Below, piece after piece: positions 6,562 through 43,862 of a stretch of DNA of 64,000 nucleotides. Made by a program: the position numbers and the translations under genes. Below the pieces are notes generated by a model. The model was not told the origin of the DNA. It was given only the letters and a program-made list of their open reading frames with translations, and did no database searches. Position 1 is the stretch's first letter. Each line of letters opens with the position of its first letter. This DNA comes from an uncultured Gammaproteobacteria bacterium (GTDB lineage Bacteria > Patescibacteriota > Microgenomatia > Levybacterales > UBA12049), in assembly GCA_964483115.1 (NCBI GenBank), contig CAYZZF010000001.1:19907-83906 (forward strand), in the 5' to 3' direction.

Positions 6562-6562
6562 A

Positions 6563-9286: not shown

Positions 9287-11665
9287 ATGTTTTACAAAAA
9301 ACTTAAGGATCTATTCCTTAAGAATAGTTACTGTTTTTTGTTTCTCGTCATTGTCCTTTTTTTCTTCAGACCGGTGTTTATAGGTAAAATTCCTTTTCCA
9401 GGCGATCTTTTGATAAATGAAAACCCATATAAAACATTAGAAAGCTATCCAAATAAAGCCCAAGGAGCGGATGTTATAAAAGAAATATACCCCTGGAGAT
9501 TTTTTTCTATAAATCAAATAAAAAATGGCGATATTCCGTTTTGGAATCCTCATAATTTTTCTGGAAATCCGCAGCTTGCAAATTTTCAAACTGCAATTTT
9601 TTACCCTTTTAATATTTTATATTTCATATTTTCTTTTAATACTGCTTGGACAATTATTATTATGCTTCAGCCATTCTTAGCAGCCATATTTATGTATTTG
9701 TTTTTGTCAAAAGGACTGCTTCTTAAGAAATTCACTTCTTTTATTGGGGGAATTGTTTTTGCTTTTTCATCGTATATGATAGTTTGGCTTGAGTATGGGA
9801 ACATTGGGAGTACTTTATTGTGGCTTCCGCTAGCATTATTATTTACTAAATGGATTTTAGATAAACCATCTATTTTTAATTTTTTGTCATTGACATTTAC
9901 TCTAACTTTCAGCATTCTTGCAGGTTATATACAAGGAGTTTTTTATATTTATGTACTTTGCTTTTTTTACTTTTTATTTTTGTTAGTATTTGAAAGAAAA
10001 AAGAAAATAAAAATACGGAACATATCTATATTTTTAATTAGCATAATATTGCCAATTTTTCTATCGGCGTTCCAGTTTTTACCGACCTACAAATTATTTC
10101 TTAATTCAACAAGAGGAAGTTATTCAATTTCCCAAATATCCAATTTACTTTTACCATCGTTTTATTGGATTACGGCTTTTGCATCTGATTTTTTCGGCAA
10201 CCCAGCAACGCGTAATTATTGGATCAGTGGGACTTATATAGAAAGAGTGATGTATGTTGGTGTACCGATTATTTTTTTTGCTTTCTACGGAGTATCCAAA
10301 TCAAAAATTTTAGAAAAAAGATTTTTTTTAGTCTTGGGCACTTTGTCTTTGATATTAGCAACTAATCTGCCGCTTGTTAAATTTTTCTATCTTATACCTT
10401 TACCTGTAATATCAACCACTGTGCCAACAAGAGAGCTAAGTATTTTTATATTCAGTCTTATCGTCTTATCTTCGATGGGTATAGATTACTGGCTTATTAA
10501 TAAAGAGAATAAGAGCAAAATTTCCATAATTTTTTTGTTAATTTATGTAGCAATTTGGCTTGCAGTAATCATTTTATCCAAGTTAGGACCGGTGAATTAT
10601 CAATATCTGCAAATAACGCGACACAATCTTATTTTACCGAGTTTTTTAGCGATCGCGACGATAATAGTTTTTTACCTTAAAAGAAAAGCAAAAACATTAG
10701 GTTTAATTTTTCTTACTTTAATTGTTATTCTTGATTTGTTATATTTTTTCAATAAAATCACACCATTTTCTCCTACTACTTTTGTTTACCCAAAGACCTC
10801 AGTTGTCTCGTTTTTACAGAAAAATGCTGGGATTAATAGGTTTTGGGGTTATGGATCTGCTTATATTCCCGCTAATTTCCAGACCATTGACGGCACGTAT
10901 TCTCCAGAGGGCAATGATCCATTACATATAGAGTCTTACGGGCAACTTCTTGCTTCATCAGCAAAGGGTACGCTACCAAACGTCTTGCCAAGACCAGATG
11001 CAAATATTGTGCCGGGATTTGGAACTAATGATTTAAAAAATAATTATTACAGACAAAGAATTATTAATCTTTTGGGAGTTAAATATATATTGAATAAAAA
11101 TGATAGTCTTTTGAAAGAATATGTGCCTGACTATGATACCTTTGCGCAAAATTATTATAAGCTAGTTTGGCAGGATTCCCCTTGGCAGATTTATGAAAAT
11201 AAAAATGCTCTTCCAAGGTTTTTTATGACAGGAAGCTATGTTATTATTAAGGATAAAAATTCCGTAATTTCAGCCATTTACAACAAAAATCTTGATTTAC
11301 AAAAAACTTTAATTTTAGAAGAAAAACCATCAATGTCAATAGACGGAGATTCTTTAGGTATCGCAAAACTTTTATCTTATACGCCTAACAAAGTCTCATT
11401 TTCTACAAAAAGTAATGGTAACAGTCTTTTATTTCTATCCGATAATTATTGGGATGAATGGCAGGCACTTATTGACAACAAGCCCGTAAAAACATATATT
11501 GCTGATTATTCTTTTAGAGCAGTTGAGGTGCCTAAAGGCCAGCATACTTTTGTATTTTCTTACAATCCTGCCTCTTTTTTTCTTGGACTTAAAATATCAT
11601 CAATCAGTCTTTTAATTCTAATACTGATACCTTTATGGATAAAAAAATATGGTAAAGAAATATAA
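9287..11665 (+). CDS. yfhO: YfhO-family GT-C membrane glycosyltransferase
   Basis: Signature YPW-x(6-12)-PxWNP-x-xFSG-P-x-AN-x-Q-x-A-x-FYP (IYPWRFFSINQIKNGDIPFWNPHNFSGNPQLANFQTAIFYP). Length 792 aa with a C-terminal extracytoplasmic domain. Confidence 0.75.
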   Translation: MFYKKLKDLFLKNSYCFLFLVIVLFFFRPVFIGKIPFPGDLLINENPYKTLESYPNKAQGADVIKEIYPWRFFSINQIKNGDIPFWNPHNFSGNPQLANFQTAIFYPFNILYFIFSFNTAWTIIIMLQPFLAAIFMYLFLSKGLLLKKFTSFIGGIVFAFSSYMIVWLEYGNIGSTLLWLPLALLFTKWILDKPSIFNFLSLTFTLTFSILAGYIQGVFYIYVLCFFYFLFLLVFERKKKIKIRNISIFLISIILPIFLSAFQFLPTYKLFLNSTRGSYSISQISNLLLPSFYWITAFASDFFGNPATRNYWISGTYIERVMYVGVPIIFFAFYGVSKSKILEKRFFLVLGTLSLILATNLPLVKFFYLIPLPVISTTVPTRELSIFIFSLIVLSSMGIDYWLINKENKSKISIIFLLIYVAIWLAVIILSKLGPVNYQYLQITRHNLILPSFLAIATIIVFYLKRKAKTLGLIFLTLIVILDLLYFFNKITPFSPTTFVYPKTSVVSFLQKNAGINRFWGYGSAYIPANFQTIDGTYSPEGNDPLHIESYGQLLASSAKGTLPNVLPRPDANIVPGFGTNDLKNNYYRQRIINLLGVKYILNKNDSLLKEYVPDYDTFAQNYYKLVWQDSPWQIYENKNALPRFFMTGSYVIIKDKNSVISAIYNKNLDLQKTLILEEKPSMSIDGDSLGIAKLLSYTPNKVSFSTKSNGNSLLFLSDNYWDEWQALIDNKPVKTYIADYSFRAVEVPKGQHTFVFSYNPASFFLGLKISSISLLILILIPLWIKKYGKEI

Positions 11666-13211
11666 TTTGATATTTATATTACTGGTAATTTTGGCTGCAA
11701 TACCGAGCGTTTTAGCTCTTTTTCATCCCGGGTTTTTCCAAACTGCTGATGGGACGTGGATGATTATTAGATTTTCAGCTTTTCATCAAGCGCTTCGTGA
11801 TGGTCAATTTCCTGTAAGGTTTTTAGGGAGGCTAAACTTCGGATATGGTTACCCAGTTGCGGATTTTTTATATCCGGGGTTTATGTATCTTGCGGAAATT
11901 CCAAAAGTTTTGGGTTTTGGGTTTATCAATTCCATAAAAATCATTTTGGGATTATCTATAATTACGTCAGCTATTTTTGTTTACTTTTGGCTGGCAAAGT
12001 TATTCGATCGTTTATCAAGCCTTCTGGGCGCACTTATATATATTTACGTTCCCTACTATTTATATGATCTTTATAACCGTGGATCAGTTGGAGAAGTTCT
12101 TGCCCTTTCGGTGGTCCCATTTATTCTTTGGCAAATAGAAAGAAAGAGTTTTTTTTGGACAACCGTAGGCTTAGGATTTTTAGTACTTTCGCATAATACT
12201 CTTGCAGTTTTATTTTTACCTCTTATAATATTCTACCTTACTCTTGATGTCTTAAACTCCTCAAATAAACGGGTGCTAATATATCGATATGCTAGTATGT
12301 TGGCGCTGGGTTTGGGATTAGCATCTTTTTTTTGGTTGCCTGCTATTTTTGATTTACAATATACAATTTTTCAAAAAACTCCTATTTCTGATTTTAATAT
12401 GTATTTTGTAGGTATAAATTTAATAGGCTTTTCTACATTATTTATTTTTTTGTTGACTTTTGTACTATTTTTAATCGGGAAAATTAAGTTTTCAAAACAT
12501 CGGTTGACAGTGTTACTGTTTATTATCGGAATTATTTCTGTATTTTTCGCAACTTCGTTAAGTGTTCCATTATGGAAAATTCTTCCAGTTTCTTTTATTC
12601 AGTTTCCTTTTCGGTTTTTATCGATCGCTATATTATGTGCGGCTTTTCTCGTAGCCTTCGCAATTTCGGTTTTACCAAATAGGGCAAAAATCATAATGGT
12701 ATTGCTTATCTTTGTTCTTGCATTTTTATCATCAAAATCTTATTTGATTCCATCCCAATTCTTTGAGAGGGATGATCTTTATTATTCAACTAATGAAGGA
12801 ACAACTACAGTGCAAAATGAATATATGCCAAAATGGGTAAAGAATCAGCCCAATCAACATTTTAAAGAGAAAGTAGAACTAATAGAAGGAAAAGCAAATA
12901 TAAATAATTTAGATTATAATTCTAAACAAGTGGTGTTTGATATTAATTCTTCGGGAAACTCAAAAGTCAGGATAAATACAATTTATTTTCCAGGCTGGAA
13001 GTCCACTATCGATGGAAATCCGTCCAATATTGAATACACCAACGACCGGGGGGTCATAGATCTGTCGGTTCCAAAAGGAGAACACAAAATAAAACTCAAG
13101 TTTTCAGAAACCCCTCTTCGCCTTTTAGCAGATCTTATCTCCTTATTTAGTCTAATAATCTTAATTGGTATTACATTAAAAGCAGTTTATATCCATAGGG
13201 TGTCAAGCTAA
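11649..13211 (+). CDS. polytopic membrane protein, GT-C-like family A (possibly PTPS-related membrane protein family), paralog 1
   Basis: N-terminus LFHPGFF..DG...R..EF..ALRDGQFPVR....NFGYGYP is conserved with the CDSs at 13332 and 39704. The C-terminal beta-sandwich-like tail (YFPGWK...VPKGEHKIKL) matches the others. I cannot confirm the family assignment without a search. Confidence 0.5.
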   Translation: MVKKYNLIFILLVILAAIPSVLALFHPGFFQTADGTWMIIRFSAFHQALRDGQFPVRFLGRLNFGYGYPVADFLYPGFMYLAEIPKVLGFGFINSIKIILGLSIITSAIFVYFWLAKLFDRLSSLLGALIYIYVPYYLYDLYNRGSVGEVLALSVVPFILWQIERKSFFWTTVGLGFLVLSHNTLAVLFLPLIIFYLTLDVLNSSNKRVLIYRYASMLALGLGLASFFWLPAIFDLQYTIFQKTPISDFNMYFVGINLIGFSTLFIFLLTFVLFLIGKIKFSKHRLTVLLFIIGIISVFFATSLSVPLWKILPVSFIQFPFRFLSIAILCAAFLVAFAISVLPNRAKIIMVLLIFVLAFLSSKSYLIPSQFFERDDLYYSTNEGTTTVQNEYMPKWVKNQPNQHFKEKVELIEGKANINNLDYNSKQVVFDINSSGNSKVRINTIYFPGWKSTIDGNPSNIEYTNDRGVIDLSVPKGEHKIKLKFSETPLRLLADLISLFSLIILIGITLKAVYIHRVSS

Positions 13212-13226
13212 TCCACCCTTAGGGTG
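13205..13226 (+). promoter_or_regulatory. conserved post-stop motif AAGCTAATCCACCCTTAGGGTG (copy 1), a small hairpin CACCC-tta-GGGTG
   Basis: 15 of 15 nt identical to the copy at 24210-24232. Both copies overlap or follow a stop codon and precede a GT-C gene. Confidence 0.4.
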
Positions 13227-13331: not shown

Positions 13332-15077
13332 ATGAATTTTTTGAAAAAGTATCTAGGACTTCTAGTGGTTATTTTTCTTTCGATACCCTCTATTCTTTCT
13401 CTTTTTCACCCTGGGTTTTTCCCAATGCATGATGATACGCAAGTGGCGAGAGTTTTTGAGATAGGGAAGGCACTAAGAGATGGAATGTTTCCCGTGCGCT
13501 GGGTTGCAGATCTTGGATATGGATATGGTTACCCAATTTTTAATTTTTATGCACCGCTTGCTTATTATTTTGGAGGACTTCTAAGTATTTTAGGGTTTAA
13601 CGCACTTACCTCAACGAAAATTATGATGGGAACAGGAATTCTACTTTCAGGTATTTTTATGTATTTTTTTGCTCAGGAATTGTTTGGGAAGCTTGGAGGA
13701 GTAGTTTCAGGGTTATTTTATGTTTATGCGCCATATCATGCTGTTGATGTTTATGTTAGGGGCGATGTTGCGGAATTCTGGGCATACGCATTTATACCTT
13801 TAATGTTTCTTGGATTCTACAAATTAATCTCAAATCTTCCGCCTCGCAGCCAGACGAGTAAATCTAAAAACTTGAGATGGGTAATTGTTGGAGCGATTGG
13901 ATTTGCGGGAATTGTTCTATCTCATAATTTAACAGCTATGATGATAATACCATTTTTAATAATTATTCTATTATTCTATTGCTTCGTCGCTTTTAGAAAC
14001 AAGAACCTATTTACTATTTACTATTTACTATTTACTATTTTTTTGGGTTTACTTTTGTCTGCCTTTTATTGGTTACCTGCTCTTTTTGAAATGAAATCTA
14101 CAAATGTACTATCTCAAATTGGAGGAGGGGCAAATTTTCGAGATCACTTTGTTTGTTGGCAGCAGCTTTGGAGCTCTCCTTGGGGTTTTGGAGGTTCAAC
14201 CTCAGGGTGTATTGATGGAATATCTTTTATGGTTGGTAAATTATATATACTTATGTCTACAGCCGCAATTGTCTTAGCAACTTCTTTAATAAATAAAAAT
14301 TTAATCAGAAAAAAAGATAATAGCAAGATATTTTTTATTTTATTTTCAATTTTTGGACTGCTCGTTTCAGTATTCTTGACACTTGAAATATCTAAACCTG
14401 TTTGGGAGTTAATTTTCCCTATGGCATTTTTGCAATACCCATGGAGATTTCTTCTATTTACTTCGTTTTTTACTTCAGTTCTTGCCGGAGCGCTTTTCTG
14501 GTTTTTACGAATTTTATTTTATAAGTTTAGGCACTTTAATACTATATATTATTTAAGCGCAGTAATTGTGATCTTAGCTCTTATTTACCTTAACGCAAAA
14601 CTTTTTATACCACAAATAATTATTAACAAAAATAACAATGATTACACAAATAATGTTGCTCTCAAGTGGATCGCCTCAAAAATATCCGATGAGTATATGC
14701 CAAAAAACTTTAATAAACCTAAATCAGAAAACCAGATTGTAAATAACAAAATATTACCCGCAGAATCTAGTGTAAAAATTTTATACGGCGTTCAAGATAC
14801 TAAAAGTTTACAAGCTTTTATCGATGTTCCTAAAGATACAAAAGTTAAGATAAACACCGCCTTTTTTCCCGCATGGACTGCTTTTGTAGATGGTAAAAAA
14901 GCTGAGCTGTATGCAACAAATCAAGGAGTGAACATTTTTATGTCTTCGGGAAAACATACATTTAATATGGAGTTTATAGAAACGCCGATAGAAAAATTGG
15001 CTAATTTTATCTCTCTTACTGGCTTATTTATACTTATTATTGGTATAATTCCTCTAAAGAGAAGCCTATATAAATGA
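13332..15077 (+). CDS. polytopic membrane protein, GT-C-like family A, paralog 2
   Basis: Same N-terminal signature (LFHPGFFPMHDDT...GMFPVRWVADLGYGYGYP). Contains an in-frame (CTATTTA)x4 tract. Confidence 0.5.
   Translation: MNFLKKYLGLLVVIFLSIPSILSLFHPGFFPMHDDTQVARVFEIGKALRDGMFPVRWVADLGYGYGYPIFNFYAPLAYYFGGLLSILGFNALTSTKIMMGTGILLSGIFMYFFAQELFGKLGGVVSGLFYVYAPYHAVDVYVRGDVAEFWAYAFIPLMFLGFYKLISNLPPRSQTSKSKNLRWVIVGAIGFAGIVLSHNLTAMMIIPFLIIILLFYCFVAFRNKNLFTIYYLLFTIFLGLLLSAFYWLPALFEMKSTNVLSQIGGGANFRDHFVCWQQLWSSPWGFGGSTSGCIDGISFMVGKLYILMSTAAIVLATSLINKNLIRKKDNSKIFFILFSIFGLLVSVFLTLEISKPVWELIFPMAFLQYPWRFLLFTSFFTSVLAGALFWFLRILFYKFRHFNTIYYLSAVIVILALIYLNAKLFIPQIIINKNNNDYTNNVALKWIASKISDEYMPKNFNKPKSENQIVNNKILPAESSVKILYGVQDTKSLQAFIDVPKDTKVKINTAFFPAWTAFVDGKKAELYATNQGVNIFMSSGKHTFNMEFIETPIEKLANFISLTGLFILIIGIIPLKRSLYK
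14007..14041 (+). repeat. (CTATTTA)x4 perfect plus one variant unit, in-frame in the family-A gene at 13332
   Basis: Read directly: ctattta x4 then ctatttt. Encodes LFTIYYLLFTIF. Confidence 0.95.
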
Positions 15078-18192: not shown

Positions 18193-19103
18193 GAAATATT
18201 TTTATTTCTATCGTAAATTTTAATGGTAGAAAAAATACTCTTGAGTGCCTGAATTCTATCAAAAAACTTGCACAAACAAACTTCAAATTGCAGGTTGTCT
18301 TAGTCGATAATGGATCAAGGGAAGCTCTTAAAATCGATGAGACTTATCTAGAAGCTATCCCTTTAAAAATTATTAAAAATAAAGATAACTTAGGTTTTTC
18401 AGGCGGACATAATACAGGAATTAAATACGCCATTTCTCGCAATGCAGATTATATCTTGATTTTAAACAATGATACTGTTGTTGATAAAAATTTAATTTTG
18501 GAGCTTACTAAAACTTTTAATAATAATGACGTTGGAATTGCTGCGCCAAAAATCTATTTTGCCCCTGGATTTGAATTCCATAAGAAAAGATACAAGAAAG
18601 AAGATTTAGGCAAGGTAATTTGGTATGCAGGAGGAGATATGGATTGGAAAAACGTTATTGGCAGACATCGAGGGGTTGACGAGGTGGACTACGGTCAGTA
18701 TGATAAGGCTTTGGAAATAGATTATGCAAGCGGCGCATGCTTTCTTATCAAAAAAAATGTAATAGAGCAGGTTGGTATGCTTGATGAAAAATATTTTCTC
18801 TACTACGAAGATAGCGATCTATCCTGGAGGGTCAAAAAGGCAGGATGTAAAGTTGCCTACGTCCCAACTGCTTTTCTTTGGCACAAAAATGCAGCATCAG
18901 TAGGCGGTTCAGGATCGAGTCTTCAGGATTATTACATAACTCGAAATCGTCTTTTATTTGGTATTAGGTATGCTCCTTTCAAATCAAAACTTGCACTTTT
19001 ACAGGAGAGCTTAAATTTATCAATCAAAGGACGACGGTGGCAAAAAAGAGGAGTTTTGGATTTCTATTTAGGGAAATTTGGGAAAGGGAGTTATTCAATA
19101 TGA
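18189..19103 (+). CDS. GT2 glycosyltransferase (rhamnosyltransferase-like)
   Basis: ISIVNFNG, VDNGS, LNNDTVV and DYASGACFLIKK. Overlaps the upstream gene as ATGA. Confidence 0.65.
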   Translation: MRNIFISIVNFNGRKNTLECLNSIKKLAQTNFKLQVVLVDNGSREALKIDETYLEAIPLKIIKNKDNLGFSGGHNTGIKYAISRNADYILILNNDTVVDKNLILELTKTFNNNDVGIAAPKIYFAPGFEFHKKRYKKEDLGKVIWYAGGDMDWKNVIGRHRGVDEVDYGQYDKALEIDYASGACFLIKKNVIEQVGMLDEKYFLYYEDSDLSWRVKKAGCKVAYVPTAFLWHKNAASVGGSGSSLQDYYITRNRLLFGIRYAPFKSKLALLQESLNLSIKGRRWQKRGVLDFYLGKFGKGSYSI

Positions 19104-24233: not shown

Positions 24234-26558
24234 TTGGTAGTTATGAAGAAAAAATTACCGTATTTTTTAATTATAACAATTTCTATTTTATTTTTCTGGC
24301 AATTTATCTTTAAGGAGTTCTTACCTATTCCTTCGGACACCATTGTTGGACTTTATCATCCTTTTCGTGACTTTTACGCAAAAGATTATCCAAGAGGCAT
24401 TCCGTTTAAGAATTATTTAATTACAGATCCCGTAAGAGAACAGTATCCGTGGAGATATTTAACCATTAATATTGAAAAAAAAATTAATTTGCCGTTATGG
24501 AATCCATATAATTTTGCAGGAACACCGCTTCTTGCCAATTATCAATCTGGCGCATTTTATCCCTTAAATATACTGTTCTTCTTTATGTCATTTTATAAAG
24601 CATGGAGTATTCTTATATTTTTTGAGCCTCTTTTGGCAGGATTTTTTTTGTATCTCTATCTTGATAATTTAAGATTAAATAAATGGGCAAGCTTTTTTGG
24701 ATCGTTATCCTTGATGTTTTCTGGTTTTTTTGTTGCCTGGATGGAATGGGGAACTGTAATTAATACCGTACTGTGGTTGCCACTTATATTGCTATCGATA
24801 GATAAAATATTTAAAAATCAACAGATCTTAAATTTAAAATCTCAGATCTCAAAACTACAACTTAAATCTCAAAATCTAATAACTTGGAGTTTAATTTTCA
24901 TTTTTTCAATTAGTTCTTCTTTTTTGGCTGGGCATCTTCAAATTTTCTTTTACCTTTTTATTGTCACAACGCTATATATTCTTGCTCGGTGGTTGCAGCT
25001 ACAACAAAGAAATTCAAAATTTTTACTTATATTCTTAGTTTCTTATATTTTATTTTTTATATTGACTTCAATTCAATGGATTCCAACTTTTCAATTTATC
25101 CTTCGTTCAGCGCGAAATGTTGATCAGCTACCTTTCCAGAATTCTGGATGGTTTATTCCTTGGCAAAACCTTATTCAGTTTATTGCCCCTGATTTTTTTG
25201 GAAACCCTACGACTCTTAATTATTGGGGAATTTGGAACTATGGGGAATTCGTTGGCTATATAGGTATCTTACCTATTATTATGGCTCTATTTTCTTTATT
25301 TTTTCGTCATGATAGAAAAACTTTGTTTTTTGGAAGTATATTTTTTCTGTCTCTTATCTTTTCTCTTCCGACGATCTTTGCGAATCTTCCATTTTTACTT
25401 CAAATCCCCTTTATTGATACTGCACAGCCGACCAGACTCTTATTTATAACAGATTTTTCTCTTGCCGTTCTTGCGGCTTTTGGTTTTGATTATTTTCTAA
25501 GGACAAAAAGCAAAAAAGAGATCTTATATCCTTTAGGTTTTATAGCAATCTTTTTTTCACTTTTATGGGTCTTTGTTCTATTTGGAGTTTATATAACAAG
25601 GCTGGTTTCGCAAGAGAATTTATTTGTTGCAAAACACAATCTCATTTTACCTACAAGTATATTTTTGATGCTAAGCCTATTTATTTTCATATTGTCGTTT
25701 CTTAAAAAGCTCAGTAAAAATGTCATTCTAATAGTGTATATTATCATAGTGGGCTTGACTGTTTTCGATTTATTGAGATTTAGTTTTAAGTTTACCCCAT
25801 TTATAAAAAGACAATATCTTTTTCCAACTACAAAGACGCTTTCTTTTCTTGAAAAACAAAAAGGGAATTTTAGGATTATGACAACAGACTCAAAAATCCT
25901 GCCGCCCAATTTTTCTATTATGTACAATTTACAAAGTATTGATGGTTACGATCCTTTATATCTTAAAAGATATGCAGAACTTATTGCCGCATTAGAGAGA
26001 GGACGGCCCGATATAGCTCCACCTTTTGGATTTAACAGAATTATTACGCCGCATAATTATTCATCAAAAATTATAGATCTTTTAGGAGTGAAATATATAT
26101 TAAGTCTTTCTGATATTTCCTCAAGTAGCCTTGTTAAAATTTTTCAAGAAGGTCAGACAAAAGTCTATAAAAATTTAAACGCTTTACCCCGGTCATTCTT
26201 CGTTAATCAAGTTAGGTTAACAAAGAATAAGAATGAAACAATAGAAGAAATGTTTAGAAAAGATTTTGATCCGTTAGAAACAGCAATAGTCGAAAATTTC
26301 CAAAGTGTCCTATCTATTCCATTTCTAGGGTGGAATAGGGGGAAGGCAGAAATTACTAATTATTCTGAAAATGAAATTATAATTAGAACAGAAAATAAAG
26401 GTGAAGGGTTCTTGGTTTTAGTTGATAGTTATTATCCTACATGGCATGCATTTATCGATGGAAAAGAGACAAAAATTTTTTTAACTGACTATAATTTTAG
26501 AGGCATAATTGTTCCAGAAGGGAAACATCAGGTTGTTTTTTATAATTCATTATTATGA
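24234..26558 (+). CDS. yfhO: YfhO-family GT-C membrane glycosyltransferase (paralog)
   Basis: EQYPWRYLT...LPLWNPYNFAGTPLLANYQSGAFYP. TTG start at 24234, or ATG at 24243. Contains a degenerate heptamer tract. Confidence 0.7.
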   Translation: MVVMKKKLPYFLIITISILFFWQFIFKEFLPIPSDTIVGLYHPFRDFYAKDYPRGIPFKNYLITDPVREQYPWRYLTINIEKKINLPLWNPYNFAGTPLLANYQSGAFYPLNILFFFMSFYKAWSILIFFEPLLAGFFLYLYLDNLRLNKWASFFGSLSLMFSGFFVAWMEWGTVINTVLWLPLILLSIDKIFKNQQILNLKSQISKLQLKSQNLITWSLIFIFSISSSFLAGHLQIFFYLFIVTTLYILARWLQLQQRNSKFLLIFLVSYILFFILTSIQWIPTFQFILRSARNVDQLPFQNSGWFIPWQNLIQFIAPDFFGNPTTLNYWGIWNYGEFVGYIGILPIIMALFSLFFRHDRKTLFFGSIFFLSLIFSLPTIFANLPFLLQIPFIDTAQPTRLLFITDFSLAVLAAFGFDYFLRTKSKKEILYPLGFIAIFFSLLWVFVLFGVYITRLVSQENLFVAKHNLILPTSIFLMLSLFIFILSFLKKLSKNVILIVYIIIVGLTVFDLLRFSFKFTPFIKRQYLFPTTKTLSFLEKQKGNFRIMTTDSKILPPNFSIMYNLQSIDGYDPLYLKRYAELIAALERGRPDIAPPFGFNRIITPHNYSSKIIDLLGVKYILSLSDISSSSLVKIFQEGQTKVYKNLNALPRSFFVNQVRLTKNKNETIEEMFRKDFDPLETAIVENFQSVLSIPFLGWNRGKAEITNYSENEIIIRTENKGEGFLVLVDSYYPTWHAFIDGKETKIFLTDYNFRGIIVPEGKHQVVFYNSLL
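24827..24878 (+). repeat. degenerate 7-nt periodic tract (cttaaat ttaaaat ctcagat ctcaaaa ctacaac ttaaatc tcaaaat) in the YfhO gene at 24234
   Basis: Read directly: 7-nt periodicity of [ct]t[ca]aaat-like units. Encodes LNLKSQISKLQLKSQN. Confidence 0.7.
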
Positions 26559-27502
26559 ACGTAAGCATTATTATTCCAAATTATAATGGAGAAAAGCTTT
26601 TAAAGAAAAATTTGCCGGAGGTTTTTAAAGCAGCAGTTAATTATAAAAATGGGGAAGTAGAAATTATTTTTGTTGACGATGGCTCCATTGATAAAAGTAC
26701 AACTTTTATCAAATCTCAAATCTCAAAACTCAAGACTCAAAACTTCGAATTGAAACTTCTTAAAAACCAGAAAAATCTTGGGTTTTCATCGACGGTAAAT
26801 CATGGGGCAAGAGAAGCAAAAGGAGATATTTTGGTTTTGCTGAATACAGATGTTATTCCGGAGAAAAATTTCCTGGAGCCATTGATAGAGCATTTTAAAG
26901 ATAATGATGTATTTGCGGTTGGGTGCATGGATAAAAGTGTTGAGGACAATCAAGTCATTTTAAGAGGTAGAGGTATTGGAAAATGGCAAAGAGGATTTTT
27001 GGTTCATGAAAGGGGGGAGGTTAATAAAAACAATACTCTTTGGGTAAGTGGCGGGAGCGGAGCTTTTAGAAAATCAATTTGGGATAAGCTTTCTGGGCTT
27101 AATGAGCTTTATAATCCATTTTACTACGAAGATATTGATTTATCCTACAGGGCTCTTAAGTCAGGATATAAATTATTGTTTGAACCCGACAGCGTAGCTT
27201 TGCACGAACATCAAAAAGGTATAATAAGAAGAAAATATTCAAACTTTAAAGTAAAGACAATTGCATATAAAAATCAATTTATTTTTGTTTGGGAGAATGC
27301 TACAGATATTGATATTCAATTTTTACATTTTTTATGGTTACCATACCATTTTATTAAGGCTGTTATAAGATTAGATTGGGCCTTTTTTCTTGGTTTTTTT
27401 GAAGCTTTTATTTTACTGCCGAAGGTTATAAAATTTAGTTTTAAGGCGCAAAAATTATTTATTAAATCAGATAAGGAAGTGGTGAAAGAATTTGAAAAAT
27501 GA
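26555..27502 (+). CDS. GT2 glycosyltransferase
   Basis: VSIIIPNYNGEKLL, FVDDGSIDKS and LLNTDVIPE. Has a heptamer tract inserted between DDGS and the NLGFS motif. Confidence 0.7.
   Translation: MNVSIIIPNYNGEKLLKKNLPEVFKAAVNYKNGEVEIIFVDDGSIDKSTTFIKSQISKLKTQNFELKLLKNQKNLGFSSTVNHGAREAKGDILVLLNTDVIPEKNFLEPLIEHFKDNDVFAVGCMDKSVEDNQVILRGRGIGKWQRGFLVHERGEVNKNNTLWVSGGSGAFRKSIWDKLSGLNELYNPFYYEDIDLSYRALKSGYKLLFEPDSVALHEHQKGIIRRKYSNFKVKTIAYKNQFIFVWENATDIDIQFLHFLWLPYHFIKAVIRLDWAFFLGFFEAFILLPKVIKFSFKAQKLFIKSDKEVVKEFEK
26709..26743 (+). repeat. (TCAAATC)x2 plus three variant units, in-frame in the GT2 gene at 26555
   Basis: tcaaatc tcaaatc tcaaaac tcaagac tcaaaac. Confidence 0.85.
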
Positions 27503-28215
27503 AATTATCAATTATAATGCCTGTTTTTAATGAGGAGAAAACAATACGAGATATTCTTGGAAAAGTGGTTGCTGTAGATATCCAAGGTGTTAGCAAAGAA
27601 ATTATTGTTGTTGATGACGGATCGACTGATGCTAGCGCATCTCAAATCTCAAATCTCAAATCTCAAAACTTAAATTTTAAATTTATACAACATAAAAAAA
27701 ATATGGGGAAAGGAGCAGCTGTTAGGGCAGGAATTGAAAATTCGACAGGGGATTATATCATAATTCAAGATGCGGATTTGGAATATGAGCCAAATGATAT
27801 AAAAAAACTTATTGCGCCAGTTCAAAAGGGCCAAGCACAGGTTGTATATGGGACAAGACTTAATCGCCTGCCGAATTTTACAAGAGATGAGAGAACCTTT
27901 CTTTTTCTGCTGCACTATCTTGGTAACAGATTCTTAAGTCTTGTAACAAGCATTTTATACAGACAGTGGATTACCGATATGGAAACCTGCTATAAACTTT
28001 TTCCCAAAAAAGCTTTAGAGAAAGTAAAACTTAATTCTAGAAGATTTGATTTTGAACCGGAAATCACTTCTAAGTTACTTAAGAAAGAGTATAAAATTTT
28101 AGAAGTACCAATCGTAACTAAACCTAGGGGATACGATGAAGGGAAAAAACTTCACACAATAAGGGATGGATCTATAGCTTTATGGACATTAATAAAATAC
28201 AGATTTATCGATTAA
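27499..28215 (+). CDS. GT2 polyprenyl-phosphate sugar synthase (DPM1/GtrB-like)
   Basis: LSIIMPVFNEE, VVDDGSTDAS and IQDADLEYEP. Has an (ATCTCAA)x4 tract after DDGSTDAS. Confidence 0.7.
   Translation: MKLSIIMPVFNEEKTIRDILGKVVAVDIQGVSKEIIVVDDGSTDASASQISNLKSQNLNFKFIQHKKNMGKGAAVRAGIENSTGDYIIIQDADLEYEPNDIKKLIAPVQKGQAQVVYGTRLNRLPNFTRDERTFLFLLHYLGNRFLSLVTSILYRQWITDMETCYKLFPKKALEKVKLNSRRFDFEPEITSKLLKKEYKILEVPIVTKPRGYDEGKKLHTIRDGSIALWTLIKYRFID
27639..27685 (+). repeat. (ATCTCAA)x4 perfect plus degenerate units, in-frame in the GT2 gene at 27499
   Basis: atctcaa x4 then aacttaa attttaa. Encodes SQISNLKSQNLNFK. Confidence 0.95.
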
Positions 28216-34616: not shown

Positions 34617-36302
34617 GTGAAGAGAACTAATTTTATCTTAATTTTTATTATTATAGTAGCCGCTTTTTTACGCTTTTATCAACTTGGGACAAATCCTCCT
34701 TCATTGACCTGGGATGAAGTGGCCTGGGGATATAATGCTTACTCTTTGGGACTTGATGGGAAAGATGAATTTGACAGATTTTTACCCGTTGATTATTTAG
34801 AGTCATTTGGGGATTTTAAGCCTCCTGTTTATGCATATCTAGATGTCATTCCGATAAAATTATTTGGACTCACCACCTTTGCGGTGAGATTCCCCTCTGC
34901 TTTTTTTGGCGTTCTTACGGTTTTACTAACTTATTTTTTGGTAAAAAGAATATTCTATAATTCAAAAAATAAAGAACTTTATGCTTTATTCTCCACTTTT
35001 ATTCTTGCAATATCTCCTTGGCATATTTTGCTCTCTCGTGCGGCATTTGAGGCAAACGTTGCATCATTTTTCATCGTAATGGGCATGTTTCTTTTTTTCA
35101 AGGCAATATCTCAAGGTGTAGCCTCTATATCACCTCGGAGGTGGGGTTATATTTACACCTTAGGATTTTTTCTTATCTTGTCTGTTATCTCTTTTATTCT
35201 TTCTATGTATACTTTTAGCACCGCAAGAATTATTGCTCCTCTTTTAATTATAATTTTAGCAGTAGGTTTTAGAAAAGAGCTTCTTTCGCGAAAAAAAGAA
35301 ATAGCTCTTGCAATTATTCTCGGATTTTTTTTGCTATTGCCACTTATAAATTTTTTATTTACACCAGCTGCAAGTCTTAGGTTTAGAGAGGTAAATATTT
35401 TTTCCGATATAGCTGTTATTGAGAATACAAATCAGGAAATTACCAATGATAATGATGCTATTTGGTCAAAAGTAATTCACAATAGACGCTTTGCTTATGC
35501 TGTATCTTATTTCAGACATTATTTTGATAATTTAAGTCCAAGCTTTCTTTTTATAAAAGGAGATGGAAATCCTAAGTTTTCAACTCAAACAGTTGGAGAA
35601 ATGTACTTATGGGATTTGCCATTTTTCATTGTTGGTGTTTTTCTGCTTATTAAAAGAAAAGAAGGCAATTGGTGGATTATTCCCGCTTGGCTTATCTTAG
35701 GAATAATTCCTGCCGCGACTGCTCGTGAAACCCCCCATGCTTTAAGAATCGAAGCAACACTTCCGACTTTCCAAACCATAACCGCAATTGGAGTAAGTTC
35801 GTTTATAATCTGGATAAAGAATCTAAGACTAAAAAAATATTTTAAATCTTTAATTGTCATTTTTATATTTTCATTTTTAATTTTTAATTTTGTATATTTT
35901 TATCATGATTATTTTGCGCATTATTCAAGAATTTATTCGGGAGAATGGCAGTATGGATACAGAGATTCAATTGAGTATGTAAAAAGCGTTCAAAATCAAT
36001 ATGACGAAATCCGCATTACAAATAAATTGGGAAGACCATATATATATTATCTATTTTATACAAATACAAACCCTAAGATATTTAGAAAAACTGCACAAAT
36101 TAAAAGAGATTCTTTTGGATTTGTGACCATCCGCGGATTTTCTAAATATCGTTTTTCGGACAGTCTTTTGTCAATAAAAGATAAAGCAAGGAGAGTCCTT
36201 TATATCGATATTCCAGCAAGAGTTCCAAAAAAAGTAGAGATTTTGAAATCGTTTTACTTACTTAACGGAGAGAAAATGCTGGTTGCCTATAGAGAAAATT
36301 GA
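34617..36302 (+). CDS. GT-C membrane glycosyltransferase (ArnT/PMT_2-like), first of three tandem paralogs
   Basis: GTNPPSLTWDEVAWGYNAYSL...DEFDRFLPV...FKPPVYAYL. GTG start. Confidence 0.6.
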   Translation: MKRTNFILIFIIIVAAFLRFYQLGTNPPSLTWDEVAWGYNAYSLGLDGKDEFDRFLPVDYLESFGDFKPPVYAYLDVIPIKLFGLTTFAVRFPSAFFGVLTVLLTYFLVKRIFYNSKNKELYALFSTFILAISPWHILLSRAAFEANVASFFIVMGMFLFFKAISQGVASISPRRWGYIYTLGFFLILSVISFILSMYTFSTARIIAPLLIIILAVGFRKELLSRKKEIALAIILGFFLLLPLINFLFTPAASLRFREVNIFSDIAVIENTNQEITNDNDAIWSKVIHNRRFAYAVSYFRHYFDNLSPSFLFIKGDGNPKFSTQTVGEMYLWDLPFFIVGVFLLIKRKEGNWWIIPAWLILGIIPAATARETPHALRIEATLPTFQTITAIGVSSFIIWIKNLRLKKYFKSLIVIFIFSFLIFNFVYFYHDYFAHYSRIYSGEWQYGYRDSIEYVKSVQNQYDEIRITNKLGRPYIYYLFYTNTNPKIFRKTAQIKRDSFGFVTIRGFSKYRFSDSLLSIKDKARRVLYIDIPARVPKKVEILKSFYLLNGEKMLVAYREN

Positions 36303-38026
36303 TGTTTGGGTTGAAAATGAATAAAAAAATTGTTTATCTTTGTCTTTTTTTGATTATTATTACTGCCTCAATATTAAGATTATGGCAGTTAGGAAATGTT
36401 CCGCCTTCTCCAGATTGGGATGAGGCTGCTCTTGGGTATAATGCATATTCGATTTTACATACAGGCCGCGACGAGTATGGAAAGTTATTGCCGATTGTAC
36501 TTAGGTCATTTGATGATTATAAGCCTGCTTTATATGCATATTTAGTCATTCCATTTATCAAAATAATTGGTCTAAATGTAGTCGCGGTAAGATTACCTTC
36601 AGTAATCTTTGGCATACTGACTGTTATTGCAACATATTTCTTGGTTAAAGAATTACTCGGCGAAAAACTCAAAGCTCAAAATGCAAATCTCAAAATTGTA
36701 ACTCAAAACTCAAAAGTTGAACCACTTGCTCTTTTAACAGCGTTTTTACTTGCAATTTCTCCCTGGCACATCCAATTTTCAAGAATTGCGTTCGAATCAA
36801 ATGTTGGTCTTGCATTTAATGTTTTCTTTGTATTTTTCTTTCTCAAAGGTCTTAAAAAACCATGGTTGCTTATTTTATCTGCTTTCTTTATGGGAATAAA
36901 TATATATGTCTATCAGAGTGAAAAAGTTTTTACCCCGCTTTTACTTTTAGCGCTTGTCGTGATATTTAGAAAAGAGCTTTTTTCTATTCCTAAAAAATAT
37001 ATTATTTATGCAGTAGTTATTGGTATTTTGGTGTTTTTACCAATGGCAGGATATATCATTAGCAACAAAAACGTTTTTGAAAGAGCGCAAGGAGTCAGTA
37101 TCTTTGCAGAGTCCTCACAGCTTTTGGAAGAAAATTCTAAAAAACTTCTTGTTGATAGGCAAAACAATGATTTCTTAGGTCTCATACTAGATAACCGCCG
37201 TATCGTTTTTGCCAAAGAGATTATATCAGGATATGTTTCGCACTTTAATCTTAATTGGCTTTTTATAACTGGTGATATTGCAAGGCATCATGCTCCTAAT
37301 ATGGGACTTTTGTATCTTTTCGAATTACCATTCTTGTTTGTTGGTATCTATGAGTTGATTTTTGGTAAGTTTGATAAAAAAATAAAGTTTTTAATATTTT
37401 CGTGGTTTCTTATTGCACCTATACCAGCGTCAATTACAAGTGGAGTGCCTCATGCGGTTAGGTCCCTCAATTTTCTTCCCATGTTCCAAATATTTATAGC
37501 ATTAGGAATAGTTAGCAGTATTGCTTTAATTTCAAATTTTAAATTTAAAATTTTAAATTTTAAAATATGGAAACTATTTGCTATTTGCTATTTGCTATTT
37601 GCTATTTTTAATTTTTTATATTATTTAGACCAATATTTTGTTCAGCTTAATTATTTTAACTCAAAAGATTGGCAGTATGGCTATAAACAAACAATAGATA
37701 CCGTTAAGCAGATAGAAGTAAAATATAAAAAAATTATTGTATCTAACCAGCCATATTTAGATCAGTCTTATATGTTTTTTCTCTTTTACTTAAAATACCC
37801 ACCCGAATTGTATCAGAAAGAATCAAAATTTGCTTCTGGGGGTTTTAGAGAAAATCATAAATTTGGAAAATTTGAATTTAGGCCATTTAATTTTGAAAAT
37901 GAAAAAGAAACAGAAGTTTTGTATATAGGAAGACCGCTTGATTTTCCGCAAAATGACTTAGGACAAGTAAAAACCATAAATTTTTTAGATGGAACTCCGG
38001 CAATAAAAATGGTTGAAAGATTATGA
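36299..38026 (+). CDS. GT-C membrane glycosyltransferase (ArnT/PMT_2-like), second tandem paralog
   Basis: GNVPPSPDWDEAALGYNAYSIL...DEYGKLLPI...YKPALYAYL. Carries a degenerate heptamer tract plus (AAATTTT)x4 and (CTATTTG)x4 tracts. Confidence 0.6.
   Translation: MMFGLKMNKKIVYLCLFLIIITASILRLWQLGNVPPSPDWDEAALGYNAYSILHTGRDEYGKLLPIVLRSFDDYKPALYAYLVIPFIKIIGLNVVAVRLPSVIFGILTVIATYFLVKELLGEKLKAQNANLKIVTQNSKVEPLALLTAFLLAISPWHIQFSRIAFESNVGLAFNVFFVFFFLKGLKKPWLLILSAFFMGINIYVYQSEKVFTPLLLLALVVIFRKELFSIPKKYIIYAVVIGILVFLPMAGYIISNKNVFERAQGVSIFAESSQLLEENSKKLLVDRQNNDFLGLILDNRRIVFAKEIISGYVSHFNLNWLFITGDIARHHAPNMGLLYLFELPFLFVGIYELIFGKFDKKIKFLIFSWFLIAPIPASITSGVPHAVRSLNFLPMFQIFIALGIVSSIALISNFKFKILNFKIWKLFAICYLLFAIFNFLYYLDQYFVQLNYFNSKDWQYGYKQTIDTVKQIEVKYKKIIVSNQPYLDQSYMFFLFYLKYPPELYQKESKFASGGFRENHKFGKFEFRPFNFENEKETEVLYIGRPLDFPQNDLGQVKTINFLDGTPAIKMVERL
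36665..36714 (+). repeat. degenerate 7-nt periodic tract (aaactca aagctca aaatgca aatctca aaattgt aactcaa aactcaa) in the GT-C gene at 36299
   Basis: Read directly. Confidence 0.75.
37534..37608 (+). repeat. two adjacent heptamer tracts, (AAATTT[T/A])x4 then (CTATTTG)x4 plus one variant unit, in-frame in the GT-C gene at 36299
   Basis: aaatttt aaattta aaatttt aaatttt ... ctatttg x4 ctatttt. Encodes FKILNFKIWKLFAICYLLFAIF. Confidence 0.9.
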
Positions 38027-39714
38027 GAAATCTTAAGATTCTTTTTCTTTTAAGTATTATTCTTTTGGCCGTATTCTTACGTTTTTATAAATTAAATACC
38101 GTTCCACCGAGTGCCTCTTTAGACGAGGCAAGCATTGGTTTTAATGCTTACTCAATTCTTCAAACAGGAGAGGATGAGTACGGATATAAATTTCCCATTC
38201 TTCTCAGAGCTTACGATGATTGGCGCCCTGCGCTTTACGTTTATCTTGTCATTCCATTTGTAAAAATTTTTGGTCTTGATGCTATATCGGTGCGCTTACC
38301 TTCGGTGATTCTTTCAGTTCTAACTATTTTAGCAACTTATTTTTTGGTAAAAAAACTTTTTAAACTCAAAACTCAAAACTCAAAACTCAAAAATACAATT
38401 CAAAATTCAAAAGAATCAGAAATTAGTAGTTTGAGATTAGAAATTTTAGCTTTGCTTTCAATAGGATTGTTCGCGATATCCCCATTGAGTGTATATATTT
38501 CAAGACTTGGCCACGAAGCAAATCTAGGACTATTTTTTGTTGTTTTTGGAATTTTATTTTTTCTGCTTTCGCAAAGAAAAAAAACGTTTCTTATTCTTTC
38601 TGCAATTTTTTTTGCTCTATCTTTATATTCATATCAGAGTGAAAAAATATTTGCCCCGCTTATAGTTATTGCTCTGGGTATTATATACAGAAAAGAGCTT
38701 TATAAGATAAAAAAAACTCTTTTACTATCTATTGTTATAGGATTATTAATTTCGATTCCAATTTTAGCTGCTTCTTTTTCTCCGCAAGCGCTTATTAGAT
38801 TTAAAGGAACCAGCGCATTTGATGCTTCTAATCCTTTATATAGTCAAAGCGCAAAACGTCTTCTTATAAGTCGGCAGAAGAGCGATATTATTGGTGAGGT
38901 TCTAAACAATAGACGAATAACAAGCGTATATATTTTTATTTCCCAATATTTTTCAAATTTTAATCCGCAATGGATTTTTGAGAATCGTGGAAACGAATCA
39001 TTTAAAGCGCCAGGAGTTGGACTTTTATATTTTTGGGAGGCTCCGTTTCTTTTGGTTGGGATATTTTCCCTTTTCAAAAATAAATATTCATCAAAGACAA
39101 AAGCTGTTGTCGCTTCTTGGGCTCTAATAGCTTTTGTTGCTCCTTCTATAACAACTCAAGCCCCTCATGCTATGAGATCTTACAATGTATTGCCAATACC
39201 TCAGATTTTGATTGGCCTTGGGATCCTTGAAATGGGTAAATTCTTCCCTAAAAAGCTTGGAATTATTTTGCTTGCCATTTTAGTGGTTTCTCAACTTTAC
39301 TACTTCTTTAATCAATATTTTTTTGTTTTTCCAAGAACGGAATCATCTTCATTTCAATATGCTTTATCAAATGTAATGCCTTATGTTTCTAGAGTCAAAA
39401 ATAAATATAAAACTGTTGTAATTTCAAATAGGGATAACTTATACCAATCTTATATGTTTTATCTTTTTTATACTAGATATAAGCCAACATTGTATTTAGG
39501 AAACGGAGGTACTGTATCTGGCGGATTTGCTCAAACGCATAAAATTGACAATCTTTTGTTTAAGCCCATTTCTTTTAAAGATAATGCAATAGAAGGGAAA
39601 ACCCTTTATGTAGGTAATCCTTCGGATTTTCCAAAATCCGAAGCTAGTCTTCTTATGTTTGAAAACCTTGATGGAAAACCTGCCGTAGAAGTGGTATCAA
39701 AAAATGAAAATTAA
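38023..39714 (+). CDS. GT-C membrane glycosyltransferase (ArnT/PMT_2-like), third tandem paralog
   Basis: NTVPPSASLDEASIGFNAYSIL...DEYGYKFPI...WRPALYVYL. Carries an (AAACTCA)x4 tract. Confidence 0.6.
   Translation: MRNLKILFLLSIILLAVFLRFYKLNTVPPSASLDEASIGFNAYSILQTGEDEYGYKFPILLRAYDDWRPALYVYLVIPFVKIFGLDAISVRLPSVILSVLTILATYFLVKKLFKLKTQNSKLKNTIQNSKESEISSLRLEILALLSIGLFAISPLSVYISRLGHEANLGLFFVVFGILFFLLSQRKKTFLILSAIFFALSLYSYQSEKIFAPLIVIALGIIYRKELYKIKKTLLLSIVIGLLISIPILAASFSPQALIRFKGTSAFDASNPLYSQSAKRLLISRQKSDIIGEVLNNRRITSVYIFISQYFSNFNPQWIFENRGNESFKAPGVGLLYFWEAPFLLVGIFSLFKNKYSSKTKAVVASWALIAFVAPSITTQAPHAMRSYNVLPIPQILIGLGILEMGKFFPKKLGIILLAILVVSQLYYFFNQYFFVFPRTESSSFQYALSNVMPYVSRVKNKYKTVVISNRDNLYQSYMFYLFYTRYKPTLYLGNGGTVSGGFAQTHKIDNLLFKPISFKDNAIEGKTLYVGNPSDFPKSEASLLMFENLDGKPAVEVVSKNEN
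38362..38410 (+). repeat. (AAACTCA)x4 perfect plus three degenerate units, in-frame in the GT-C gene at 38023
   Basis: aaactca x4 then aaaatac aattcaa aattcaa. Encodes KLKTQNSKLKNTIQNSK. Confidence 0.95.
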
Positions 39715-43552: not shown

Positions 43553-43862
43553 AAATGAGACATTATTATTAAACAAGCTAATTCTACGAGATATGTTTTT
43601 CAAACATATCTTAAGAGTATATGGTTATATTATTAACATAGTATATTTTTTTGGTTGGTATGCTATTGTAGATAATAGGCCCTCATTGTTAGAGCCTACA
43701 AAAAATGGGTTAATTAAACTGACTGTTTTAAGAGGGAAATATAATATCGAAGTTAAATTTGTAAAAACTCCTGTCAGAAAATTTTCAGATACGGTTTCTT
43801 TATTATCATTCTTAATACTTTTAATAATTCTTGTAAAAGCTGTATATTTAAAACAGGTATGA
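43542..43862 (+). pseudogene. orphan C-terminal fragment of a family-A GT-C membrane protein
   Basis: YFFGWYAIVDNRPSLLEPTKNGLIKLTVLRGKYNIEVKFVKTPVRKF...LLIILVKAVYLKQV aligns with the last 90 aa of the CDS at 11649 (YFPGWKSTIDGNPSNIEYTNDRGVIDLSVPKGEHKIKLKFSETPLRLL...ITLKAVYIHRV). The upstream 450 aa are absent. Confidence 0.45.

Follow-up and report, generated by a model that had tools for sequence, protein, structure and literature searches.

In-frame heptanucleotide arrays in two adjacent GT2 glycosyltransferase genes of a Levybacteria-like bacterium

The question raised by this locus is whether two adjacent GT2 glycosyltransferase genes, one carrying a perfect and the other a decayed array of heptanucleotides, represent an active phase-variation switch next to a mutationally locked one, as a first, sequence-only reading had proposed, or whether the arrays owe their existence to another process. 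The DNA analysed (hereafter the window) is a 64-kb stretch from a Levybacteria-like bacterium of the candidate phyla radiation, and it forms over its whole length (positions 1-64000) a single cell-envelope glycan island, with nearly all genes on the + strand. On balance, we regard both tracts as probably being slippage-driven coding heptanucleotide microsatellites, members of a lineage-wide set that is held in frame by selection. As judged from the sequences compared, the arrays of this set appear to occupy fixed, structurally tolerant positions in envelope-glycosylation genes of Levybacteria-like Patescibacteria. Each tract is a latent hot spot of frameshifting, since a null allele results when one or two units are added or removed; switching was not observed.

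Both arrays (Table 1) lie between the DDGSxD and the N-x-G motifs of their respective genes. The sequence, together with Tandem Repeats Finder (TRF), bore out the proposal that they belong to a common repeat family at an equivalent position, and the peptides initially given for the two tracts, DDGSIDKSTTFIKSQISKLKTQNFELK and DDGSTDASASQISNLKSQNLNFKF, proved exact. Equally well founded was the description of four perfect units in the tract of the 238-aa gene, and of two perfect followed by point-mutated units in that of the 315-aa gene, where the order is TCAAATC, TCAAATC, TCAAAAC, TCAAGAC and TCAAAAC. The perfect array encodes SQISNLKSQNL, which corresponds to helix alpha-2 and the loop that follows it. 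When up to two mismatches were allowed, the 14-mer AATCTCAAATCTCA matched the window 22 times against 1.67 expected, all but one of the matches being on the + strand, and none of 100 shuffled sequences reached this number. A chance origin of the repeats was ruled out by these shuffles and by a lag count, which scores 14-nt windows that match themselves in at least 13 of 14 positions at a given shift: the window yielded 128 such positions at lag 7 (0.1 expected), 70 and 12 at lags 14 and 21, respectively, and only 0 to 2 at all remaining lags from 2 to 24. As three heptamers make 21 nt, that is seven codons, a stop-free unit gives an identical cyclic heptapeptide in whichever frame it is read, and for this reason an SQISNLK-like peptide recurs across different genes. 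For annotation purposes, this recurring peptide is a by-product of DNA repeats and no protein motif, and it calls for no homology at the protein level.

The comparison set was composed of 80 metagenome loci and of loci retrieved via the exact protein (related loci being labelled L081-L171), and 99 arrays were catalogued. Lag 7 scored 897 in the 871 kb of loci from related Patescibacteria, where lags that are not its multiples scored at most 14; around homologs from other phyla (1.34 Mb), the prominent lags were codon multiples (6, 9, 12, 15 and 18). The catalogued arrays measure 21-41 nt, hold at most about 5.9 units and never 7-8 copies, are poor in G (5% versus 18% in the background) and are predicted to be unstructured. 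With regard to unit size, tandem copies and excess of period 7, they agree with the heptanucleotide class of 5-11 nt units (Mrazek 2007), but not with its predominantly intergenic location, since 96 of the 99 lie in frame within long open reading frames (ORFs), the other three being at a start codon or outside genes. In relatives, the corresponding site of the 238-aa gene is occupied by about four copies of a unit that differs by genome (Table 1); the spacer at the array (45 nt) and the array's phase within the reading frame are both constant. Differences of a single base between units are present in every copy, as exemplified by AATTCAA in L118 and AATTCAG in L136. The arrays of this gene are thus in concerted evolution at the DNA level, under constraint on length and frame.

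Arrays recur at set places in other genes of the relatives as well: at about aa 50 in orthologs of the 315-aa GT2 gene, at about aa 115 and aa 395-425 in PMT_2 orthologs and, in YfhO orthologs, at about aa 195 (A-rich arrays; aa 194-200 in L094, L110, L119, L134, L149, L164 and L170, and aa 218 in L102) and about aa 255 (T-rich arrays, in a membrane segment). Whether a given array is perfect or decayed varies by genome, the 315-aa gene array being perfect in L091, L093, L114 and L119 and the 238-aa gene array decayed in L081; the state is therefore not bound to the gene, and the idea that the decayed copy is a fixed, locked state found no support. The likeness of units within a genome did not exceed that between genomes (permutation test, p = 0.14), which rules out inter-locus gene conversion or a trans-acting factor setting one unit per genome, and makes it less likely that a trans-acting factor recognises any one unit. 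The density of arrays per 10 kb of related loci amounted to 2.3 for GT2 genes, 0.9 for GT-C genes and 0.1 for genes without a homolog in the window. Two loci that are 91% identical (L130:4109-4151 and L145:7418-7431) show a 30-nt in-frame difference at about aa 195 of YfhO, where an AAGTATT-type array is found in the former and none in the latter; hence, arrays can come and go in steps that are divisible by three. Our literature searches gave no paper on heptanucleotide repeats in Patescibacteria or the candidate phyla radiation.

With respect to switching, both tracts are simple-sequence repeats inside an ORF, and in silico a change of one unit abolishes the product. Adding or removing one or two units brings a stop 1-5 codons past either tract, leaving products of 55-62 aa for the 238-aa gene and of 63-71 aa for the 315-aa gene, while gain or loss of three units stays in frame and gives 231/245 aa and 308/322 aa, respectively. 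In-frame variants do occur in nature, in the form of 231-aa homologs and of a one-unit version in L158. It is conceivable, though in our estimation unlikely, that the arrays are genuine contingency loci, that is, slippage-prone switches of envelope glycosyltransferases that flip at low frequency, with the ON state dominating the consensus, for instance under pressure from phage or host attachment. Of the two switches, the perfect tract would then mutate more readily than the decayed one. Such a role agrees with a unit length that is not a multiple of three, with units that are all stop-free in all frames, and with the concentration of arrays in GT2 and GT-C surface-glycan genes; their perfection over long divergence would fit ON-OFF-ON cycling (one unit duplicated, another deleted), and an adjacent hairpin could raise the slippage rate. 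What speaks against it is the absence of any OFF allele from the 96 in-gene arrays, about 65 of which lie in genes not used for locus selection, together with a copy number that does not exceed about 5.9 units and an array that fills a fixed 45-nt slot.

The same conclusion emerges from homologs and from population samples. The 120 best homologs retrieved with the catalytic C-terminal 171 aa, a query that does not depend on an intact N-terminus, included no truncated protein (0/120); all were 231-252 aa long and none was a fragment or an OFF allele. The window's own species is represented by a single entry in the protein database, and its protein had no match in the contig index. Tract length was compared in the consensus sequences of three other species, with ten assemblies each. 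For P0025, which has a decayed array, 18 single-nucleotide polymorphisms (SNPs) in 15 kb and no indels were recorded; for P0009, which has perfect AATCTCA x5 and AAATTTC arrays, the ten assemblies (at least 99.7% identical) showed no indels; and in P0031 the array length was unchanged. Near-identical locus pairs likewise displayed no difference in tract length. These consensus data thus contain neither tract-length variation nor ON together with OFF alleles, and, the arrays being in frame, an active switch beside a locked one is left without support. In classical contingency loci, tracts are long, their length varies between strains and OFF alleles are common, and the pattern of the present arrays is unlike this. 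Finding a non-triplet repeat within a gene is not enough on its own to call that gene phase-variable.

Two further candidates were discarded. In one of a group of near-clonal Levybacteria loci, the YfhO gene is split into two ORFs by a C-to-A change that turns TCG into TAG (L090:8156, compared with L081-L089); a frameshift at the array was ruled out as the cause of the split, which is due to this point nonsense mutation and is a natural null allele without involvement of the repeat. Programmed -1 frameshifting at an X XXY YYZ motif was also rejected, as AAATTTC fits this motif while most units, including AATCTCA, do not.

Both tracts are abutted at their 5' side by inverted repeats (Table 1). 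At the decayed tract, RNA folding of positions 26680-26760 gave -10.7 kcal/mol (z = -2.65); at the perfect tract, the 3' arm of the GC-rich hairpin overlaps the first repeat unit, and the homologous hairpins of relatives have 5-9 bp with changes on both sides of pairs. Among 93 non-redundant arrays, a stem of at least 5 bp ends at the 5' boundary in 33, versus 9.7% of random positions, and a stem of at least 7 bp in 13, versus 1.1%; at the 3' boundary, stems are weakly enriched. Of the 33 hairpin-abutted arrays, 19 lie in genes other than the 238-aa GT2 gene, and several gene families are represented. In the 238-aa gene the hairpin covers the codons T-D-A-T-A-S and persists through paired changes such as GAT...GCA to GAC...GCG and D-A-T-A-S to D-S-T-E-S; it also exists in a shifted version, GCGACC...GGTCGC. 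Over the related sequences, on which this covariation was measured and whose kinship inflates the shuffle test, paired cells made up 60.3%, as compared with 55.0% in shuffles (0/500 as high) and with 21-36% when the partner was slid.

These observations could be read as signs of a nucleic-acid cis element, the hairpin and the G-poor, single-stranded heptamer array forming a functional RNA or single-stranded DNA (ssDNA) module placed in tolerant coding sequence. Selection would keep its repeats perfect for a protein that covers about 7 nt per subunit (a cold-shock-type OB-fold) or for a processing, pausing or priming signal. We give little credence to this explanation. In its favour are the hairpin of the 238-aa gene, kept through two-sided and partly non-synonymous changes, the enrichment of hairpins at 5' boundaries in several gene families, the low G content and predicted lack of structure of the arrays, and the retention of AATCTCA across proteins that are 69-78% identical; to this may be added that CspB is reported, in work cited in PMC4679880, to bind heptamer direct repeats with one protein per heptamer. 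Against it, the units vary freely, both from genome to genome and among the genes of a single genome, so that no single sequence is read; T-rich arrays in membrane segments behave alike; and no Rfam family matched the window. Furthermore, the covariation could stem from templated quasi-palindrome mutation, and the hairpin is built on stems whose seed is a pair of conserved codons, GAT (Asp) and ATC (Ile), which happen to be reverse complements of each other.

As to the enzymes, both proteins belong to the GT2 family (GT-A fold), with Pfam PF00535 scores of 96 and 123 bits (cut-off 23.3), DDxSxD and DxD motifs and a Rossmann-like beta/alpha core. The best solved homolog of the 315-aa protein is PfDPMS (5mlz, E 3e-10). 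The 238-aa protein matched ArnC (9hwj, E 4e-17), PfDPMS (5mlz, E 6e-17) and GtrB (5ekp, E 4e-14), and by sequence it resembles the polyprenyl-phosphate glycosyltransferases DPMS, ArnC and GtrB. The alignment with PfDPMS spans residues 1-216 of the 238-aa protein, the DDGSxD and DAD motifs being common to both. Unlike these three enzymes, however, the 238-aa protein has a post-DDGSxD helix that is encoded by a DNA repeat, and its AlphaFold2 model (mean pLDDT 86, alternating strand-helix core) is without their long C-terminal transmembrane domain. Its homologs number thousands in Patescibacteria, with 238 aa as the commonest length (67 of 148), and the best 120 relatives, mostly of 238 aa, are, where named, Levybacteria, Roizmanbacteria or Patescibacteria.

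The tracts had further been taken for insertions into a surface loop. For the perfect tract, an insertion was ruled out by the alignment with other phyla, by Protein Data Bank (PDB) alignments and by the AlphaFold2 model; for the decayed tract, which makes a longer segment, the proposal roughly holds. Homologs of the 238-aa protein from about 15 other, mostly distant phyla, among the matches listed, have 41-48 aa over the span where this protein has 46, with one outlier of 56. Phyla with an equal-length segment include Chloroflexota, Acidobacteriota, Actinomycetota, Melainabacteria and archaea, and their segments are ordinary and non-repetitive, as exemplified by DDGSTDGTREILKKLEKENP; the segment in unrelated phyla thus equals the tract in length, as the refuting test of the first reading asks, but not in sequence. 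Relative to ArnC 9hwj and PfDPMS 5mlz, the gap at the tract is one residue at most. In the AlphaFold2 model, residues 46-55 (ASASQISNLK) form helix alpha-2, which is followed by a short loop and by a strand at 61-64. In Patescibacteria, orthologs of the 315-aa protein that lack an array span 31-33 aa between the first residue of DDxSxD and the last of NLGFS, versus 40-42 aa in orthologs with an array (40 in the window protein); the excess in the array-bearing orthologs is seven residues, that is, three units. In PfDPMS and chondroitin synthase, the segment is shorter by about 5 aa than in the window protein.

That selection for an amphipathic heptad helix or linker (I-x-N-x-K-x-x) produced the repeat, the DNA periodicity being secondary, is highly improbable: the tract is indeed modelled as a confident surface helix, with Ile, Asn and Lys recurring at fixed heptad positions across units and a constant phase of the array within the frame, but no selection on the protein can require a 7-nt periodicity inside a 21-nt codon block, which largely refutes this explanation, the repeat spans less than two heptads and a single 10-residue helix whereas a coiled coil takes at least 3-4 heptads, homologs from other phyla use unrelated non-repetitive helices of equal length, and identical DNA units occur in unrelated structural contexts (membrane segments, N-terminal tail).

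The anatomy of the arrays, their conserved positions, the concerted change of their units, their in-frame status and the stability of the consensus across samples are direct results; as their mechanism, we infer slippage with stalling at hairpins. Misaligned, templated DNA synthesis in a 7-nt register would change all copies of an array together, with replication slippage or transient dislocation as the candidate route, and stalling of the polymerase at the 5'-abutting inverted repeat probably helps the misalignment. The GC skew of the + strand is positive across the whole window, which makes the coding strand the probable lagging-strand template; on such a template, the array would be copied before the polymerase reaches the hairpin, an order that should favour stalling and misalignment. 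Selection at the protein level would fix the phase (Ile codon first), the total length, which in the 238-aa enzyme would be that of the alpha-2 helix, and the reading frame. The array of the 238-aa gene may thus be currently homogenised and that of the 315-aa gene currently decaying, which would reflect their stage of turnover and no designed pair of active and locked switches. A segment of about 7 nt has been proposed (Mrazek et al. 2007, as summarised in PMC4692102 and PMC4679880) to be the DNA held by the polymerase, thereby favouring slippage and an excess of heptanucleotides; the same sources expect coding repeats to have units in multiples of three.

Several points weigh against slippage under selection for frame. 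(i) Exact AATCTCA is kept at the same position in genes whose proteins are 69-78% identical, which is more conservation than simple neutral unit drift predicts. (ii) Cells changed on both sides of hairpin pairs numbered 44, versus 25 in shuffles (0/500 as high), and these paired changes could reflect selection on nucleic-acid structure rather than mutation bias. (iii) GT-C genes contain 35 arrays in 380 kb, versus 1 in 95 kb of neighbouring genes without a homolog in the window, an approximately 8-fold excess (binomial estimate, p ~0.003); contingency loci share such a bias to surface-structure genes, relaxed constraint on membrane loops being an alternative. (iv) Consensus assemblies cannot reveal minority length variants. 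(v) The strict 7-nt register is not explained by any measurement made.

The island that surrounds the two genes comprises more than 12 paralogous membrane glycosyltransferases of the GT-C type (PMT_2, YfhO, GT87, PTPS_related), about ten GT2 and three GT4 genes, two flippases and nucleotide-sugar enzymes, including the dTDP-sugar pathway, and several of its other genes carry arrays (Table 1). The unit family of the two tracts recurs in four of them, at 6562, 24809, 36664 and 38362, and once more at 63336. The array at 6562 begins one base past the stop of a GT2 gene, and the start codon of the GT87-like gene 6563-7753 is the ATG within its mutated first unit, AATGTCA; the encoded protein accordingly starts with MSNLKSQISNLK. 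The arrays at 36664 and 38362 occupy equivalent positions in paralogous PMT_2 genes, and the Pfam PMT_2 match in the first of these breaks at residue 123. The ORF that runs from about 62116 past the window end, at 64000, holds four separate in-frame heptamer arrays, at 62631, 62754, 63089 and 63336; the appearance of arrays without an ORF at 62.6-63.4 kb was thus false, all of them lying in one long frame that leaves the window. Arrays of the T-rich CTATTTA/CTATTTG class also occur in L091, at 7450 and 19202, and T-rich ATTTGTT x5 is found at aa 252-280 of YfhO in L097, L100, L102 and L134; they are the same phenomenon as the ATCTCAA-family arrays, with a different unit class. In the nucleotide-sugar/GT4 part of the island (42.5-58 kb), the sole array is a perfect AAGAATC x4.1 (44314-44342), in the GT4 gene 43859-44917.

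Table 1. Arrays, inverted repeats and GT2 genes of the window, and array units of the 238-aa gene in the window and in related loci
Feature	Position or locus	Strand	Remarks
GT2 glycosyltransferase gene, 315 aa	26555-27502	+	PF00535, E 3e-27; carries decayed tract
Perfect 11-bp inverted repeat TTGATAAAAGT-ACA-ACTTTTATCAA	26688-26712	+	3' arm enters first repeat unit
Decayed heptanucleotide array, encodes IKSQISKLKTQN	26709-26744	+	TRF period 7, 5.1 copies, 89% matches
GT2 gene, 238 aa	27499-28215	+	PF00535, E 1e-35; carries perfect tract
GC-rich hairpin GATGC-TAGC-GCATC	27628-27641	+	Codons D-A-S-A-S; minimum-free-energy structure
Heptanucleotide array, ATCTCAA x4 perfect (27639-27666) and degenerate unit	27639-27675	+	TRF period 7, 5.3 copies
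AATCTCA array, 5.3 copies	6562-6598	+	TRF; begins one base past stop of GT2 gene 5800-6561
Perfect T-rich array CTATTTA x4.9	14007-14040	+	Hydrophobic segment of membrane-protein ORF 13332-15077
Array of AATCTCA unit family	24809-24853	+	TRF; aa 192-207 of YfhO-like membrane gene 24234-26558
Decayed AAAACTC array	36664-36715	+	TRF; aa 122-139 of PMT_2 gene 36299-38026
Perfect CTATTTG x4.9 array	37574-37607	+	C-terminal membrane part of PMT_2 gene 36299-38026
AAACTCA array, 4 perfect and decayed units	38362-38412	+	aa 114-130 of paralogous PMT_2 gene 38023-39714
AAATTTC/AATCTCA array, in frame	63336-63367	+	Membrane-protein ORF from ~62116 past window end
Unit AATCTCA, 238-aa gene array	window, L091, L093, L131
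Unit AATTTCC, 238-aa gene array	L107, L110, L119
Unit AATATCA, 238-aa gene array	L114
Unit AATTCAA, 238-aa gene array	L118, L132
Unit AATTCGA, 238-aa gene array	L125, L126
Unit AATTCAG, 238-aa gene array	L136, L166
Unit AAACTCG, 238-aa gene array	L101

Related loci also contain GC-rich palindromic elements of 15-30 nt, which lie in frame in the middle of arrays and have the ends TCC...GGA or TGACCC...GGGTCA (L097:10162-10177, L106:10153-10169, L111:1969-1987, L108:10172-10201, L110:15631-15645, L099:10160-10183, L115:16736-16770 and L129:10162-10177). The element types recur in at least four gene families (including GT2-238, GT2-315 and PMT_2), in various frames and both orientations, and are also present between genes, directly past stop codons; where two loci of 90% identity differ by 24 nt, the difference is due to one of them. 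The window itself has none of these elements, and they are not part of the two tracts. A separate hairpin, TCCACCC-NNN-GGGTGGA, recurs in the C-terminal part of YfhO-type genes of relatives (L093:730-746, L099:8808-8824, and L108:8808-8824 and 18942-18964). The sites in the window are 13214-13226 and 35131-35143, the former being a shorter copy, CACCCTTAGGGTG, three bases past the stop of the ORF 11649-13211.

A broader possibility, which we advance only tentatively, is that the hairpin-abutted in-frame heptamer arrays form a conserved genomic system of Microgenomates-type bacteria of the candidate phyla radiation, either a hypermutation module or a footprint of replication and repair, which also offers landing pads to palindromes. 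As a hypermutation module, it would have enzymes of the envelope glycan switched or resized. As a footprint, templated misalignment in a strict 7-nt register would homogenise direct repeats, and template switching would perfect nearby inverted repeats. In either version, the arrays would receive GC-rich palindromic mini-elements of 15-30 nt, in frame and in either orientation, within AT-rich genes.

A life attached to other cells is generally assumed for bacteria of the candidate phyla radiation, in whose small genomes surface-glycan machinery takes up a large share. Should the arrays be mutational hot spots of such genes, they would be a source of heritable surface variation for this group, for which we found no published report of phase variation in the literature. 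If they are footprints of misalignment in a 7-nt register, they would offer a clean natural test of the long-standing idea that polymerase geometry underlies the heptanucleotide excess of bacteria.

Overall, the arrays invite comparison with three known systems. Contingency loci based on simple-sequence repeats (SSRs) are represented by the tetranucleotides of lipooligosaccharide (LOS) glycosyltransferase genes and the 7-bp repeats of hmw promoters in Haemophilus influenzae, and by polyG tracts in capsule and LOS genes of Campylobacter. Like these, the present arrays are non-triplet, lie in surface-glycan genes and are enriched in envelope functions, and a change of unit number would abolish the product. 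In contrast to them, they showed neither OFF alleles nor length polymorphism in the sequences compared, are low in copy number and fill a slot of fixed length; moreover, contingency loci of this kind belong to host-adapted bacteria, while the window derives from an environmental, groundwater-type bacterium of the candidate phyla radiation. Selfish palindromic DNA in frame is exemplified by the Rickettsia palindromic elements, next to which may be placed the mobile GC clusters of yeast mitochondria. The GC-rich palindromes of the relatives, which lie in frame in several gene families, in both orientations, and also between genes, may be of this kind; they are much shorter than the Rickettsia elements, and their putative mobility is suggested by their distribution. 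Finally, the heptanucleotide SSRs described so far (cyanobacterial STRR, GGGAATC of Xanthomonas and Nostoc, TAACTGA of Beggiatoaceae) share with the present arrays a dominant period of 7, short arrays of few to several copies and, as the cause proposed for them (PMC4692102, PMC4679880), slippage of a polymerase with a footprint of roughly 7 nt. According to PMC4679880 they are mainly intergenic, whereas here nearly all arrays lie in genes and in frame. The present arrays further differ from those described in that they stand at orthologous positions with turnover of their units, are A/T-rich and G-poor, and are often abutted by a hairpin.

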